A stretch of DNA of 64,000 nucleotides from Nitrospirae bacterium MYbin3 (GTDB lineage Bacteria > Nitrospirota > Thermodesulfovibrionia > Thermodesulfovibrionales > Dissulfurispiraceae). Made by a program: the position numbers and the translations under genes. This document shows, piece by piece, positions 17,560 to 26,758 of the stretch (position 1 is its first letter; the number at the start of each line of letters is the position of its first letter). The notes beneath the pieces are model-generated. The model saw only the letters and a list, made by a program, of their open reading frames with translations, did no database searches and was not told the DNA's origin. The stretch spans positions 1 through 64,000 of the forward strand of contig PEAD01000014.1 in NCBI GenBank assembly GCA_002753335.1, read 5' to 3'.

Positions 17560-19689
17560 ATGGGTTTTTTATCGGATATCAAGCGGGATTTTCGCGCTGT
17601 TTTCGAGCGTGATCCGGCCGCAACAAATGCCTTGGAAGTGGCGCTCACCTATCCCGGATTTCATGCTGCGGCAGCTTATCGTATAGCTCATGCGCTATGG
17701 AATTCTGGCGTGCCTATTTTGCCAAGAATCATCTCGAATATTTCGAGGACTCTCACCGGCATAGACATTCACCCAGCGGCAAAGATTGGAGCAGGTTTTT
17801 TTATTGATCACGGAATGGGAGTTGTTATCGGCGAAACATCCGAAGTGGGAGAAGAATGTCTTTTGTATCAGGGCGTAACTCTTGGAGGGACGGGCAAAGA
17901 CAAGGGTAAGAGGCATCCTACGCTCGGCAATCATGTTGTGGTAGGGGCCGGAGCAAAGATACTCGGGCCTATAACTATCGGAGATTATGTGAAGGTCGGC
18001 GCAAATTCTGTTGTTCTTAAGCCGGTGCCGGATAATGCTATTGTGGTTGGCGTTCCGGGCAAAATCATAAAAAGAAAGGTAGTAAGGATAGGGGAGGAAG
18101 GGCTGTTCGAAACGCTCGACCATGTAAGGCTTCCCGATCCTGTTGACGATAGACTGCAGGAGATGACCGAATATATCGAAAAGCTTGAAGCAAGGATAGA
18201 GAAGCTTGAAGGAAGAGGAGGCAGGATGAAGGTTTTCAACACCATGAGCGGCAGGAAAGAGGATTTTGTCCCGCTCACTAAAAATAAAGTCGGCATCTAT
18301 GCCTGCGGTGTCACGGTTTATGACTACTGCCATATAGGCCATGCCCGCAGCGCTATAGTGTTTGATGTTATGGTGAAGTATCTGCGCCATAAAAATTTTG
18401 ATGTGAAATATGTGCGGAACTTTACGGACATTGATGACAAGATAATCAGGCGGGCGAACGAAGAGGGCAGCGCATGGGATGCGGTGGCCTCAAAATATAT
18501 AGACGAATATTACCGTGATATGGATATGCTTGGAATAGCGAGGGCGGATATAGAGCCGAAGGCTACCGAACATATTCAGGAGATGATTGATGTAATAAAG
18601 GCGCTGGTCGATAAAGGCGTTGCATACGCTGTTGCCGAAGGCGAAAACAGCAGTGTTTATTTTGCGGTAGAGAAATTTGGCGAGTATGGCAAACTCTCGA
18701 AGAAAGAGCAGAAAGACCTGCAGGCAGGCGCGCGTGTGGATGTTGACGAGAGGAAGAAAACCCCGATGGATTTTGCTCTCTGGAAGGCTTCAAAAGAGGG
18801 GGAACCGTGGTGGGAAAGCCCGTGGGGCAAGGGCAGACCGGGATGGCATATAGAATGCACCGCTATGGCTATAAAGCATCTTGGGGAATCGATAGACATT
18901 CATGGCGGCGGCGCGGATTTGATTTTCCCTCATCACGAAAACGAGATTGCCCAGTCGGAAGCGTTCACAGGCAAGCCTTTCGCCAAATACTGGATGCACA
19001 ACGGCTTTATAACTATAGACAAAGAGAAGATGTCGAAATCGCTCGGCAACTTTTTTACGATACGGGACATATTGGAGAAGTATGACGCTGAAGTCGTCAG
19101 GCTGTTCGTTTTATCGAGCCATTACAGGAACCCGATAGAATTTTCTCACGAGCAGTTGAGGGATGCGGAATCATCGCTAGACCGTGTTTACAGCACAATA
19201 GCTAGGATTGAGGAGTTTCTTGTTTCTGACAGCGCATCAAAGAAAACGGTTTCAACCGCCGAGTTCGAAGAGTTTTTAGGAGAGTTCGAAGGGCTCTTTG
19301 CAGAAGCGATGGACGATGATTTTAACACCGCTTTATCAATAGGCCATATATTCGAGTTTGTCAGGGAGATTAATAAATTCTTGGATGCCAAGCCTCACGG
19401 AGACGCTGCAAAGGCTCTTATTGCAAGGGCAAAGGTTATGTTTGCAACAGCAACCGGAGTACTGAATCTTTTCAGGAGAACTCCTCTTCAGTGGAATGTG
19501 GACCTTTTGAGAAGCAAAAAAATAGAGCTTTCTGAACAGCAGATAATTCAGAAGATCGGTGAAAGGCAGGATGCGAGGCAGAAGAAAGACTGGGCAATGG
19601 CCGATGCTGTCAGAAAAGAACTTGAGGACAAGGGAATCCTTCTCGAAGACAAAAAAGAGGGAACCGACTGGAAGGTCAAGATTGCCTGA
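17560..19689 (+). CDS. cysE-cysS: Fusion of serine O-acetyltransferase (CysE) and cysteine--tRNA ligase (CysS)
   Basis: aa 1-~175 CysE ([26 protein letters not shown]); coiled-coil linker; CysRS from aa 223 (CGVTVYD, HIGH, DFALWK, PGWHIEC, KMSKS). No stop between the two parts. Confidence 0.93.
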
Positions 19690-22973: not shown

Positions 22974-23046
22974 GATGTGGGTTGATTTTCAAAATACGCA
23001 CATCATTCTTTGAAAATTTCACGGTTTAGAAACGTAATGCCAAAAC

Positions 23047-23076
23047 TTGACAATCCCATCTTTTGTGTGCTCTAAT
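23047..23076 (+). promoter_or_regulatory. Putative sigma70 promoter of fur
   Basis: TTGACA (23047-52), 18 bp, TCTAAT preceded by TG; overlapped by a Fur box. Confidence 0.5.
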
Positions 23077-23093
23077 GATAATAAATATCATTA
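23073..23093. promoter_or_regulatory. Fur box 1 (autoregulation)
   Basis: TAATGATA-ATAAA-TATCATTA palindrome; core TGATAAT-A-AATATCA has 1 mismatch to the 7-1-7 consensus. Confidence 0.8.
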
Positions 23094-23106
23094 CCAAAAC
23101 TGCAAT

Positions 23107-23538
23107 ATGACTATGAATACACCAAGAGAAATATTTGCAAATTATATAAGCAAACAGGGACTGCGTAATACACAGCAGAGAGACGACATTCTTGCTGCAT
23201 TTTTTTCTTCTGAAAAACATATCACTGTTGAGGAGCTTTTTAGCGTGGTAAAAACAAAAAATCCTGCTATTGGCTATGCAACTGTCCACAGGAACCTGAA
23301 TCTGCTTTGTGAGTGCGGCTTGGCTGATGAGATAAAAATAGGAAAACAAAAAGCCAGATATGAGCCTAAATTTGGGCAAAAGCATCATGATCACTTAATC
23401 TGTCTTAGATGCGGCAAATTTACAGAAGTCATTAATAGCAAAATAGAGAAGCTTCAGGACAAGCTTGCAGAAGAGAACGGCTTCATGCCCGTCAGACACA
23501 AGCTGGAGATATACGGAATCTGCAGGGAGTGCAGATAG
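23107..23538 (+). CDS. fur: Ferric uptake regulator family repressor
   Basis: GLRNTQQR, HITVEEL, IGYATVHRNL, HHDHLICLRC and YGICREC. ATG 23107 or 23113. Confidence 0.93.
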   Translation: MTMNTPREIFANYISKQGLRNTQQRDDILAAFFSSEKHITVEELFSVVKTKNPAIGYATVHRNLNLLCECGLADEIKIGKQKARYEPKFGQKHHDHLICLRCGKFTEVINSKIEKLQDKLAEENGFMPVRHKLEIYGICRECR

Positions 23539-23546
23539 TTTTTTTT
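23518..23546 (+). terminator. Terminator-like hairpin within the fur 3' end
   Basis: ATCTGCA-GGGAG-TGCAGAT (7-bp perfect stem), then AG and T8. Confidence 0.5.
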
Positions 23547-23556
23547 GCGTCTAAGA

Positions 23557-23571
23557 TGATATTAATTTTCA
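23557..23571. promoter_or_regulatory. Fur box 2 (upstream of mini-Fur)
   Basis: TGATATT-A-ATTTTCA, 2 mismatches to TGATAAT-N-ATTATCA. Confidence 0.6.
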
Positions 23572-23602
23572 TTTTCAATAATAAAGGAGGAGGTAACTAC
23601 AG

Positions 23603-23770
23603 ATGAGTTTATTTAGAAAAAGTAATTTGGTTTGCTTGAAATGCAAAAAGTGCATCGAGGTCACCGATAGCAAGATCGCTAAACTGCAGTACAGGCTTGC
23701 CAAGGCTAATGATTTCATTCCCATTAGAGAGAGCTTGGAGATATACGGAATCTGCAGGGAGTGCAGATAG
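23603..23770 (+). CDS. 55-aa stand-alone Fur C-terminal dimerisation domain ('mini-Fur')
   Basis: Manual translation: MSLFRKSNLVCLKCKKCIEVTDSKIAKLQYRLAKANDFIPIRESLEIYGICRECR*. RBS AAGGAGGAGG. 30/47 aa identical to the adjacent Fur C-terminus. Confidence 0.8.
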   Translation: MSLFRKSNLVCLKCKKCIEVTDSKIAKLQYRLAKANDFIPIRESLEIYGICRECR

Positions 23771-23778
23771 TTTTTTTT
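23750..23778 (+). terminator. Second copy of the terminator-like hairpin, within the mini-Fur 3' end
   Basis: ATCTGCA-GGGAG-TGCAGAT-AG-T8. Confidence 0.5.
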
Positions 23779-23784
23779 GTGCCA

Positions 23785-23807
23785 CAATTGATAATAATTA
23801 TCAATTG
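23785..23807. promoter_or_regulatory. Fur box 3 (upstream of feoB)
   Basis: Perfect 11-1-11 palindrome CAATTGATAAT-A-ATTATCAATTG containing the exact 7-1-7 consensus. Confidence 0.92.
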
Positions 23808-23833
23808 CAATAAATTAATGCCGAGGTGTTGCA

Positions 23834-25825
23834 ATGACATTGCTTGGGAAAAAACAAAAGTGCCATGCTGCGCAGTCTGTTTCATTTAATGGTAAAAGGA
23901 AGGTTGTGCTGGTAGGAAACCCGAATGTTGGCAAGAGTGTTCTGTTTAATGTTCTTACCGGAGCATATGTAACAGTATCAAACTATCCCGGCACATCGGT
24001 AGAGGTTACTCGCGGCGTAGCAATAATTGAAGAAGAGCAGTTTGAGGTTATTGATACTCCCGGAATGTATTCTCTTATGCCAATCACGGAAGAAGAGCGT
24101 GTAGGCAGGGAGATACTGTTAAACGAGTGCCCTGATATAGTCATTCATGTAATTGATGCGAGAAATCTTGAGCGTATGCTGGCAATGACTATTCAGTTGA
24201 TAGAAGCAGGCTTGCCTGTAATTTTGGTTGTAAATATCATGGATGAGGCAGAGCGTTTAGGACTAGGCATAAACATACCTCTCCTCGGCGAAAAACTTGG
24301 CATTCCGGTCATTGGTGCGGCAATGGCTAAAAAAAGGGGCGTTGAGGAAATAAGAAAGAGCATATCAGGTTTTAATCCGAAAGAAATCCGCCAATTCAAT
24401 TACAATAAAAAATTTGAGGATGATATAACAGAAATAGCATTAATGCTAAAAGGTGACTACAGGCTTTCACGTAAAGCAATAGCCTTGCTGCTTATGCAAA
24501 AGGATAATGAAATTGCCGAATTGATTGAGGAGCAGGAAGGAGCTGGGTATCAGGCAATAGATGAGCTTGTGAGAGAGAAGGTTTTTGAGCGGAGGGAGTC
24601 TCTGCATATGGACATATCAATGCAAAGACGAGAGATTGTGAAGGGCATCATCAAGGATGTTTTCTCAGCGCCGGAGCGTAGAAGGTTTACGCTAAGCGAC
24701 AAGCTGTCAAACTGGAGCGTCAGTCCCCTTACTGGCATACCTCTTCTTTTAATAGTTCTCTATTTTGGTCTCTATCAGTTTGTTGGTGTTTTTGGAGCCG
24801 GGACAGTTGTTGATCTGCTTGAGAAGAAGCTGATAGAGGGAATGTTCAATCCTTGGATTACCGAGACGGTTAACAATGTTGTTCCTTGGGAGATTATTCA
24901 GGAGCTGATTGTCGGAGAATACGGCATTATCACTATGGGTGTTCGATATGCGGTAGGCATTATACTTCCGATTGTAGCCACTTTCTTCCTTTTTTTCTCG
25001 ATGCTGGAAGACAGCGGATACTTTCCCAGATTGGCTCTTCTTGTTGATAGGGTATTCAAAAAAATAGGTCTTTCTGGGCGTGCCGTAATACCTATGGTGC
25101 TTGGGTTCGGCTGCGACACAATGGCTACTATGGTAACAAGGACTCTTGAAACTGTTAGAGAAAGGATTATTGCCACGCTTCTCCTTGCTCTTGCAATTCC
25201 ATGTTCTGCGCAGCTTGGGCTAATCCTATCGCTTTTGTCTAAATCCCAAGGGAGCTTTTTTGTTTGGGCAGGATGCGTACTGATGCTTTTTCTAACTGTT
25301 GGATTTTTTGCCGCACGAGTCATTCCGGGGGACAAAACAATGTTTTATATGGAGCTGCCGCCTATGCGGATGCCCCAACTGTCTAATGTCCTGACAAAAA
25401 CATATACAAGAATGCAGTGGTATTTTATGGAAATACTGCCTTTATTTATTTTTGCATCTGTACTTCTATGGCTTGGAAAGATAACCCACTTTTTCGAAAA
25501 GATGGTGGAATGGTTCAACCCTGTGATAAATGCCATAGGGCTTCCCAAAGAGACCACGGTGGCGTTCATTTTCGGCTTTTTCAGGCGTGATTACGGTGCG
25601 GCAGGGCTTTTCGACCTTCAGGAAAAGGGGCTGCTAGATGTTAGGCAAATAACAGTGGCTGCTGTGACTCTTACCCTTTTCGTGCCATGCATAGCGCAGT
25701 TCCTGATAATGAAAAAAGAGCGAGGCCTCAAAACCGCACTAATGATGGGTCTGTTCGTGAGCGTTATAGCCTTTGGAAGCGGTTATTTTCTAAATAAACT
25801 GCTGGTTACAACCGGAATATTATGA
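23834..25825 (+). CDS. feoB: Ferrous iron transporter B
   Basis: GNPNVGKS, NYPGT, DTPG, LEDSGY, LGFGC, IPCSAQ, MELPP and a multi-TM C-terminus. Confidence 0.96.
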   Translation: MTLLGKKQKCHAAQSVSFNGKRKVVLVGNPNVGKSVLFNVLTGAYVTVSNYPGTSVEVTRGVAIIEEEQFEVIDTPGMYSLMPITEEERVGREILLNECPDIVIHVIDARNLERMLAMTIQLIEAGLPVILVVNIMDEAERLGLGINIPLLGEKLGIPVIGAAMAKKRGVEEIRKSISGFNPKEIRQFNYNKKFEDDITEIALMLKGDYRLSRKAIALLLMQKDNEIAELIEEQEGAGYQAIDELVREKVFERRESLHMDISMQRREIVKGIIKDVFSAPERRRFTLSDKLSNWSVSPLTGIPLLLIVLYFGLYQFVGVFGAGTVVDLLEKKLIEGMFNPWITETVNNVVPWEIIQELIVGEYGIITMGVRYAVGIILPIVATFFLFFSMLEDSGYFPRLALLVDRVFKKIGLSGRAVIPMVLGFGCDTMATMVTRTLETVRERIIATLLLALAIPCSAQLGLILSLLSKSQGSFFVWAGCVLMLFLTVGFFAARVIPGDKTMFYMELPPMRMPQLSNVLTKTYTRMQWYFMEILPLFIFASVLLWLGKITHFFEKMVEWFNPVINAIGLPKETTVAFIFGFFRRDYGAAGLFDLQEKGLLDVRQITVAAVTLTLFVPCIAQFLIMKKERGLKTALMMGLFVSVIAFGSGYFLNKLLVTTGIL

Positions 25826-26004
25826 TGCGCTGCGGTTTTTGCGGATATGATTTTGAAGAGAAAGAAGGAATTCAGGGATGCAAGAACTGCCCCATGTCCG
25901 GCGGATGCAAAATGATAAAGTGTCCGAAATGCAACTATGAAAATCCTTCCGAGCCTTTTTGGGTAAAGAAGGTTAAAGGTTTTTTTAAGGAGGCAAACAA
26001 ATGA
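25822..26004 (+). CDS. Small Cys-rich FeoB-associated protein
   Basis: 60 aa with 7 Cys (CxxC-x12-CxxC-x5-C-x4-CxxC); overlaps both neighbours by 4 bp. Confidence 0.75.
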   Translation: MMRCGFCGYDFEEKEGIQGCKNCPMSGGCKMIKCPKCNYENPSEPFWVKKVKGFFKEANK

Positions 26005-26657
26005 AACTTTCAGAAAATGCTGAAGAAATATTGGAAGCGATGTGGATTGCGATTGAAGAAAATGGGGGCGATTTTGCTGCAATACAATATATTGGAATAG
26101 ATTCTAGGGATCCTGCGTATGCCGAACTTGTAGATTCTGCCCTTATTGAATTAAAGGACGGACATGCGTATTTTTTTGAAAAAGGCAGGGAAGAAGGGCG
26201 TCAGACTATTCGTCGCCATAGACTTGCGGAGCGCCTGTTGATGGATGTTTTAGATATAAGGGGTGAAGAGGGGGATAAAAAGGCTTGTCAGTTTGAACAC
26301 CTCCTAAAAGAAGGTGTTGATATAAAAGTATGCAATATGCTGAACCATCCTTCTACGTGTCCCCATGGAAAGCAGATCCCTATGGGAGACTGTTGCACAG
26401 AGGCGCGCAAAAGCGGCAATCTTGGAGTGCTGCCTTTAACCGAACTGAATCCGAAAGAAGATGGCGAAATAGCTTTTATCCAAACCAAAGACTCAAAAAT
26501 AATGCACAAACTAATGTCTATGGGGGTTTTGCCGGGCAATCAGATTTATCTTGTGCAAAATTTCCCATCGTATATTTTTCGCATAGGCTATTCCGAGTTT
26601 GCGATTGATTCTGAGATGGCTGATAAAATTTATGTAAGACAACTGGTTCGACAATAA
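26001..26657 (+). CDS. DtxR/MntR-family metal-binding protein with C-terminal FeoA domain
   Basis: RRHRLAERLL, ACQFEH and CPHGKQIP; FeoA-like KLMSMGVLPG...FAID...A.KIYV. Confidence 0.88.
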   Translation: MKLSENAEEILEAMWIAIEENGGDFAAIQYIGIDSRDPAYAELVDSALIELKDGHAYFFEKGREEGRQTIRRHRLAERLLMDVLDIRGEEGDKKACQFEHLLKEGVDIKVCNMLNHPSTCPHGKQIPMGDCCTEARKSGNLGVLPLTELNPKEDGEIAFIQTKDSKIMHKLMSMGVLPGNQIYLVQNFPSYIFRIGYSEFAIDSEMADKIYVRQLVRQ

Positions 26658-26758
26658 AAACCGAACGATTTTTATTTTGTCTGCATAAAGAACATTTGCA
26701 TACACCACCTGTCTCGTTATCGATATTATATGATAAGAGTCACCTATACACTTTTTTG

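Follow-up and report, generated by a model that had tools for sequence, protein, structure and literature searches.

This study provided evidence that the window analysed here, a 64,000-nucleotide stretch of the uncultured Nitrospirae bacterium MYbin3 (genome G000), carries between fur and feoB a 55-codon gene that joins FeoB residues 1-8 to Fur residues 97-143, FeoB(1-8)::Fur(97-143), and that this gene is the junction of a tandem duplication of about 232 bp. To judge by its substitution pattern, the encoded peptide, here called the mini protein, seems to have been maintained by protein-level selection with the loss of two metal ligands, a conclusion that has statistical support. By analogy with SinI and H-NST, the mini protein may antagonise Fur, the only one detected in the genome, by pairing with it while being itself under Fur repression, a reading to which we give close to, if slightly under, an even chance.

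The genes of the block all lie on the + strand, and the Fur boxes are given without a strand. The fur gene (143 aa, 23107..23538; 141 aa if the start is the ATG at 23113) has a Fur box on its 5' side (23076..23090) and is followed by the mini ORF (55 aa, 23603..23770), by feoB (663 aa, 23834..25825), by a 60-aa Cys-rich ORF (25822..26004) that is kept 3' of feoB in related operons, and by a 218-aa protein with a DtxR-type dimerisation domain and a FeoA domain (26001..26657). In the assembly, which is 93.7% complete, fur was the only full Fur-family gene detected; a second, distant pair of feoB and dtxR-like genes lies on contig C20 of the same genome. The names given to homologues place the block among Thermodesulfovibrionales/Nitrospirota. 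A similar fur-feoB-ideR operon is presumably present in Geobacter, for which a literature check gave no confirmation. Elsewhere in the window, the 709-aa ORF at 17560-19689 presumably encodes a serine acetyltransferase fused in frame to a cysteinyl-tRNA synthetase, to judge by its motifs.

The origin of the mini ORF was traced through a direct repeat, in which positions 23425-23581 match 23657-23813 with a period of 232 nt and 76% identity, and the starts of the mini ORF and feoB are 231 nt apart. From the repeat period and the junction alignment, copy A extends approximately over 23395..23626 (+) and copy B over 23627..23857 (+). Copy A contains fur codons 97-143, a hairpin with a T-tract, a Fur box, an RBS, and the feoB-derived codons 1-8 of the mini ORF (23603..23626, +), with the duplication junction at about codon 8; copy B contains the Fur-derived mini codons 9-55, again followed by a hairpin with a T-tract, a Fur box, an RBS, and the real feoB start. 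Over its first 18 nt, the mini ORF agrees with the start of feoB in the window at 12 positions and with fur at 4, and the start of feoB in the relative G007, whose FeoB begins MSLFRKNKS, matches the mini start at 21 of 24 nt (counted by eye). Nine of the 10 genus g7 genomes, and likewise G274, have a single-copy fur-feoB arrangement; their FeoB N-termini read MSLFRKNK, MALFKKSK, MGLFRKNK and similar, behind a similar RBS.

These data also correct one claim of the first-pass annotation, which held that the HHDH motif of Fur had become RKSN by substitution. Since codons 1-8 derive from the feoB start and codons 9-55 from fur, the motif was cut off and not mutated; erasure by point mutation was rejected, as the place of the missing motif is the duplication junction and the RKSN region is feoB-derived. 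A read-through fusion of fur with the mini ORF was likewise rejected, since the two lie in different frames and the whole open frame of the mini ORF is only 57 codons long. The 232-nt repeat, the paired hairpins, a 44-nt exact block, the loss of E114, and a fifth cysteine were all absent from that annotation.

The 44-nt block (23504..23547, +) is identical to 23736-23779, spans the terminator hairpin at the last codons, and is common to both copies, which are otherwise saturated; the identity may be due to gene conversion or to combined RNA and protein constraint. The whole fur-mini-feoB block at 23000-26700 has a GC content of 41.5% versus about 47% in the flanks, and the synteny with G001, of the same genus, stops at the upstream gene, the block being absent at the equivalent position in G001. 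The low GC content and this absence suggest that the block was acquired horizontally, and the duplication may be older than the transfer. The best attachment of the mini branch is the G000/G274 node, a placement that fits an old duplication or a xenologous origin alike and cannot separate them.

The mini ORF is also equipped with expression signals. A Fur-box matrix built from 68 sites of relatives was scored over 2,928,446 genome positions, and the box of feoB ranked 1st (22.8 bits; box B at 23789-23803, within a near-perfect palindrome at 23785..23807), that of fur 2nd (21.5 bits), and that of the mini ORF 6th (16.7 bits; box A at 23557..23571), the weakest of the three. The strong SD sequence at 23584..23594 (+), with AAGGAGGAGG at 23584-23593, was inherited from the feoB translation-start region; scored against the motif that we take to be the anti-SD, the mini ORF gave the strongest pairing of the 8 starts tested, at -13.5 versus -9.8 for feoB. 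The two fur starts gave +1.3 and -0.5, with no recognisable SD before either ATG (23087-23113). The promoter scan found no sigma-70 promoter on the 5' side of the mini ORF (2 sites found versus 2.7 expected), and to call the TTG-16 nt-TATCAT arrangement of relatives a promoter is a guess. In three relatives (G070, G071 and G073; loci L106, L102 and L096), the fur-feoB spacer is shortened and lacks a good Fur box between the genes.

A gapless alignment of the mini ORF to the Fur C-terminus has 30 identical residues, every one of them within 9-55 (30/47), and the mini ORF contains no stop or indel. Both CxxC pairs are kept, as C11/C14 and C51/C54, and a fifth cysteine at position 17 (F105C, seen in 0 of 118 relatives) makes the first pair CxxCxxC. 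In Pfam, FUR (PF01475) was the only match at E<=0.1, with 21.7 bits against a gathering cut-off of 23.1; the match spans only profile positions 80-121, and the N-terminal winged-helix DNA-binding domain is absent. Thus far the first-pass annotation was borne out: it had described a stop-free 55-codon ORF at 23603-23770 between the two genes, a strong RBS, a Fur-box-like site of its own at 23557-23571, a gapless match of 30/47 to Fur, both CxxC pairs, the change of RHK to RES (again seen by alignment), the missing DNA-binding domain, together with the synonymous pairs TTA/TTG, TGT/TGC and CTT/TTG. Its label "unannotated" did not stand, as NCBI already lists an identical 55-aa sequence, which forms a singleton cluster in nr, and the ESM Atlas contains it too.

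Concerning the metal site, an ungapped match equates E114 and H131 of Fur with E108 and H125 of MgFur, and PMC4506495 gives MgFur site 2 as H87, D89, E108, and H125. In the mini protein, the regulatory-metal motif HHxH is missing, and so are the counterparts of E108 and H125; the remaining site-2 ligands E114/H131 are thus lost, those equivalent to H87 and D89 having been removed by the junction. A laboratory double mutant of MgFur site 2, E108A/H125A, lacks the same two ligands as the mini protein, and dimerisation is described there as unimpaired by mutations of site 1 and site 2 (PMC4506495).

An AF2 model of the mini protein, built with a 76-row alignment, reached pLDDT 86 and was predicted to have the topology of the Fur dimer domain, strand-strand-helix-strand. 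In Foldseek, the top matches of this model were Fur, Zur, and PerR, all Fur-family chains, with a TM of 0.77 by query; the fold and both CxxC pairs are thus those of the Fur dimerisation domain in CjFur (4ETS/6D57), HpFur (2XIG), and MgFur (4RAZ), whereas the mini protein lacks the DNA-binding domain and HHDH and has a FeoB-derived N-terminus and an extra Cys. As stated in PMC11353095 and PMC11672702, the Fur dimer is made by helix 5 and strand 5, and a Cys4 site stabilises it. Hydrophobic and interface residues, with the interface assigned from this published statement and not from atomic contacts, are kept at I113, L116, Q117, L120, A121, F126, L133, I135, and Y136, and three acidic residues of the helix, spaced i, i+4, and i+8, are altered (E114A, D118Y, E122K).

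Selection was tested on codons 9-45 (37 codons), the exact 44-nt block at the 3' end being left out for possible gene conversion. In this stretch, the mini ORF and fur differ with a pS of 0.90, at which synonymous sites are saturated, and a pN of 0.26. For the mini branch, the codon model estimated an omega of 0.12 at about 1.9 neutral-equivalent substitutions per site, with an LRT of 10.1 against omega=1; with the 44-nt block included, omega was 0.17 and the LRT 7.1. Among site-class models, the log likelihood rose from -2517.3 for neutral evolution (1 branch parameter) and -2514.4 for Fur-like evolution to -2510.0 for Fur-like then neutral evolution (2 parameters) and -2502.6 for free core, variable and ligand classes (4 parameters). 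The core omega was 0.04 in the free model and near 0.03-0.06 across models. A grid test, in which the background omegas were set close to the site-class estimates, separated neutral from constrained evolution with an LRT of 14.6-28.8. Plain neutral decay after the duplication was rejected by the codon model together with the site-class and grid likelihoods; dN/dS, the test that the first-pass annotation had named for itself, thus turned out to favour it, as did its argument against simple decay. None of the simulated decay segments matched the observed pS and pN jointly, to which little weight is given because the start sequence was a majority proxy and not the true ancestor.

As a low omega could stem from time spent inside a full-length Fur of another lineage, a two-phase test was added. 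Constraint after truncation was favoured over the two-phase null with an LRT of 14.0 when E114/H131, picked after the data had been viewed, formed the ligand class, and with an LRT of 6.7 when four ligands (107, 114, 117, 131) were used; neither value was reached in any of 60 null simulations, with the caveat for both that synonymous sites are saturated and only 37 codons enter. Without a ligand class, the LRT was 3.5-4.1, for which no bootstrap was run.

The residues concerned tell a similar story in comparison with 118 full-length relatives. Across positions 97-133, the only 100%-invariant positions changed in the mini protein are E114 and H131, and the invariant L97, C99, C102, E107, V108, Q117, and F126 are kept. 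Five residues of the mini protein (F105C, E114A, D118Y, H131E, and K132S) were unseen in the relatives, which have 0-3 rare residues each in the same stretch. Near-invariant sites outside the ligands also changed (G103K, F105C, K132S, and D118Y), which fits some decay of the protein sequence. K104 and S111 of the mini protein are rare among the relatives (10/118 and 20/118) but are shared with the adjacent Fur and G274.

As the main alternative, the ORF may be a relic, in which the Fur part diverged inside a full-length fur of another lineage and recombined onto the resident feoB start, or a duplication is awaiting loss, with functionless drift since; we consider this unlikely, though a serious possibility. 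The two-phase model requires just about 0.14 neutral substitutions per site, and about 60% of simulated 37-codon segments remain stop-free, counting substitutions only; the apparent horizontal acquisition of the block also suits a relic. Against it stand the two-phase null, unmatched in all 60 simulations under both ligand-class definitions, the disappearance of both remaining site ligands from a core whose invariant residues stay, and the intact ORF, Fur box, and SD. The shared K104 and S111 argue in the same direction, and, from general knowledge, direct repeats that share an exact stretch of 44 nt should be readily deleted if they serve no purpose. The first-pass annotation had set a microprotein against a duplication relic; selection and the kept fold and dimer core speak for the former, and the tandem-duplication origin is shown, as the latter has it, but duplication origin and later selection are compatible and not exclusive.

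The distribution among relatives was searched at several ranks. Fur-domain matches were found in 64 of 68 family, 66 of 317 order, 105 of 390 class, and 23 of 401 phylum genomes, under differing E-value cut-offs, and two adjacent matches were found in G000 only; a second adjacent match was absent in 67 other family, 389 other class, and 400 other phylum genomes, and in a local check of 39 loci, the locus of the window alone carried two. This restriction to one genome counts in favour of a relic. The protein search for a 30-97-aa relative of the mini protein returned one candidate, the mini protein itself. Among the operons sampled, the closest share 71-77% identity with the window's in Fur, FeoB, and the DtxR-like protein, and the two nearest Fur proteins from any source, P0006 and P0007, are 81% and 77% identical. 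Orthologues, by which the earlier claim could be judged, were thus not found in the relatives; yet none of the operons sampled lies near enough to be a descendant of the duplication, and the absence elsewhere therefore carries little information on conservation.

A separate Fur fragment, independent of the mini ORF and again missing the DNA-binding domain, was found in G130 (L120:2790-3090, contig C4), where Fur residues 80-142 lie directly before feoA-feoA-feoB; it too favours a relic. It is a 61-aa TTG ORF, present on 4 contigs, with no in-frame ATG after the RBS, and is preceded by a TTGACA element and a palindrome as well as by a strong RBS; the search of 11 other genomes of G130's family found no such piece. 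A full-length relative differs from it at only 4 of 70 residues, so that it looks like a recent deletion remnant, and in the full-length relative P0228, YHYH already stands where HHDH would be. The case of G130 indicates that Fur remnants lacking the DNA-binding domain also arise as apparent relics.

Other short frames were read individually. Those of G075 (L073, C13) and G313 (L121, C251) were rejected as frameshift-split full-length fur genes; in G075, feoB is split too, possibly through assembly errors. G327 has a 72-codon Fur-like frame near a contig start. Of 104 HMMER matches, the short proteins among the 25 that were read retain the His ligand wherever its region is covered, and they resemble gene fragments. 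Pattern scans gave 12 genome and 9 metagenome loci, none above 63% identity and one of them (L023) a full Fur, and none of the 42 stretches from the viral scan was confirmed. In the ESM Atlas, Fur-like clusters of 61-70 aa (0.88-0.94) are possibly fragments and serve as leads only.

A stand-alone metal or Fe-S module is a second alternative, in which a homodimer of the mini protein would bind Zn or an Fe-S cluster on its five Cys and would buffer or sense iron or stabilise Fur; we regard this as rather improbable. The four kept Fur Cys and the fifth, gained Cys point to such a role, a review (PMC11353095) describes binding of [2Fe-2S] by the Fur C-terminal domain in isolation, and the constraint on the core is compatible with any folded role. 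However, the operon already encodes a small Cys-rich protein, and a kept Fur dimer surface beside Fur would be expected to form mixed dimers.

The Fur/mini complex prediction scored 0.44, versus 0.00 for the best of 3 controls, with 100% contact agreement between runs and a partner pLDDT of at least 75. The mark applied to such predictions was reached by 116 of 157 solved pairs and 2 of 215 mismatched pairs, but at scores of 0.60 or below by only 18 of the 157 solved pairs and by both mismatches. As Fur dimers have already been solved, the score may reflect likeness only, and the predicted complex lends weak support to a Fur/mini heterodimer.

The history of the proposed antagonist begins with the duplication shown above: an old event of about 232 bp in a fur-feoB operon copied the 3' third of fur with its terminator, then the Fur box and RBS, and finally the opening codons of feoB, so that a new in-frame gene gained ready-made expression signals. 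The statistics, on 37 codons, support that the peptide has since been retained as a Fur dimerisation domain, folded and bound by Cys, with constraint lifted from the ligands of the metal site that truncation had broken. Through helix 5 and strand 5, it could pair with full-length Fur into dimers with one DNA-binding head, which would lower the amount of active Fur, in the way that SinI acts on SinR and H-NST on H-NS. Because its box is weaker than that of feoB and its RBS far stronger than that of fur, the mini ORF might be released first as iron falls, sharpening feoB induction, and the weaker box likewise suggests positive feedback. Translation, mixed dimers, lower DNA binding, and positive feedback are what we infer. 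Speaking against an antagonist, a constitutive antagonist of the sole Fur could be costly, and the gene is known from one locus only. That one 232-bp duplication yielded a Fur-repressed microprotein titrating the only Fur, and turned graded iron sensing into a positive-feedback switch of FeoB, to which the fifth Cys may add Fe-S or Zn dependence, is a tentative proposition that we would sooner doubt than assert.

Several known systems resemble the proposed antagonist. SinI of Bacillus subtilis is a small homologue of the SinR oligomerisation region with a conserved hydrophobic interface, and the SinI-SinR heterodimer was shown experimentally to abolish DNA binding (PMC3163267). In contrast to the mini protein, its fold is unrelated and it is controlled by Spo0A and not by its own target; for the mini protein, binding and antagonism are conjectural and its gene has turned up in a single genome. 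H-NST, a natural truncated homologue, is a dominant-negative dimerisation domain carried on horizontally acquired islands, but it belongs to an unrelated family, is found in a widespread clade, also binds DNA itself, and has no metal sites (PMC7074111). The mini protein shares with both the trait of being a small homologue of a repressor oligomerisation domain without a DNA-binding domain. FurA/Fpa (YlaN) has the effect proposed here, being a small protein that binds Fur and frees it from DNA under iron limitation; it is reported to be confined to Bacilli, whereas the mini protein is a Fur paralogue fragment (bioRxiv 10.1101/2023.09.28.559918). The mini protein showed no homology to YlaN, since FUR was its only Pfam match at E<=0.1 and its top fold matches were all from the Fur family. 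A further study of FurA/Fpa (YlaN) as a Fur antirepressor reportedly exists (PMC11559061). The concept is shared with plant and animal microProteins, single-domain proteins that modulate related full-length ones, although these are eukaryotic and the bacterial mini protein is a candidate (PMC9638782). The mini protein is homologous to neither SinI, H-NST, nor FurA/YlaN, and is not itself a Fur regulator.

The hairpins require a separate consideration, as the duplicated segment may act in cis: a second terminator and a Fur box in series could tighten feoB repression, or translation up to the hairpin could set read-through, with the peptide merely kept harmless. The entire regulatory module was duplicated, and a terminator-like hairpin followed by T8 overlaps the end of fur (23518..23546, +) and, again, the last codons of the mini ORF (23750..23778, +); at -9.1 it was the most stable of those folded and is identical between copies. 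A weaker hairpin with a T-tract occurs at the equivalent place in many relatives. We hold a role in cis to be very unlikely, since the core omega and the selective loss of metal ligands exceed what harmlessness needs, and G070, G071, and G073 have no good box at all between fur and feoB. An assembly artefact at the exact repeat, conceivable in a 66-contig assembly, is hardly credible, as no long repeat lies at the point inside the ORF where feoB joins fur, the two copies have diverged to saturation at synonymous sites, and the identical protein is on record from a contig of 78,860 nt versus 76,549 nt here, a record that is perhaps not independent.

Should the mini ORF be a relic, it would be a commonplace scar of duplication, and would caution that a low dN/dS between neighbours need not imply function. 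Its origin is fully legible at the locus, in the junction, the borrowed start and operator, and the loss of two metal ligands, and the locus is a clean, small test case for microprotein antagonists born of partial duplications. Our literature search, which covered main texts and mostly papers outside subscription, found no natural truncated-Fur antagonist; if true, this would be, within the searches made, the first natural Fur paralogue fragment to act as an anti-repressor. To our knowledge, the Fur antagonists described, FurA/YlaN among them, are proteins unrelated to Fur. SinR and H-NS each have antagonists that derive from the dimer domain of the repressor itself, and a Fur version, if true, would be a new off-switch for the main bacterial iron regulator.
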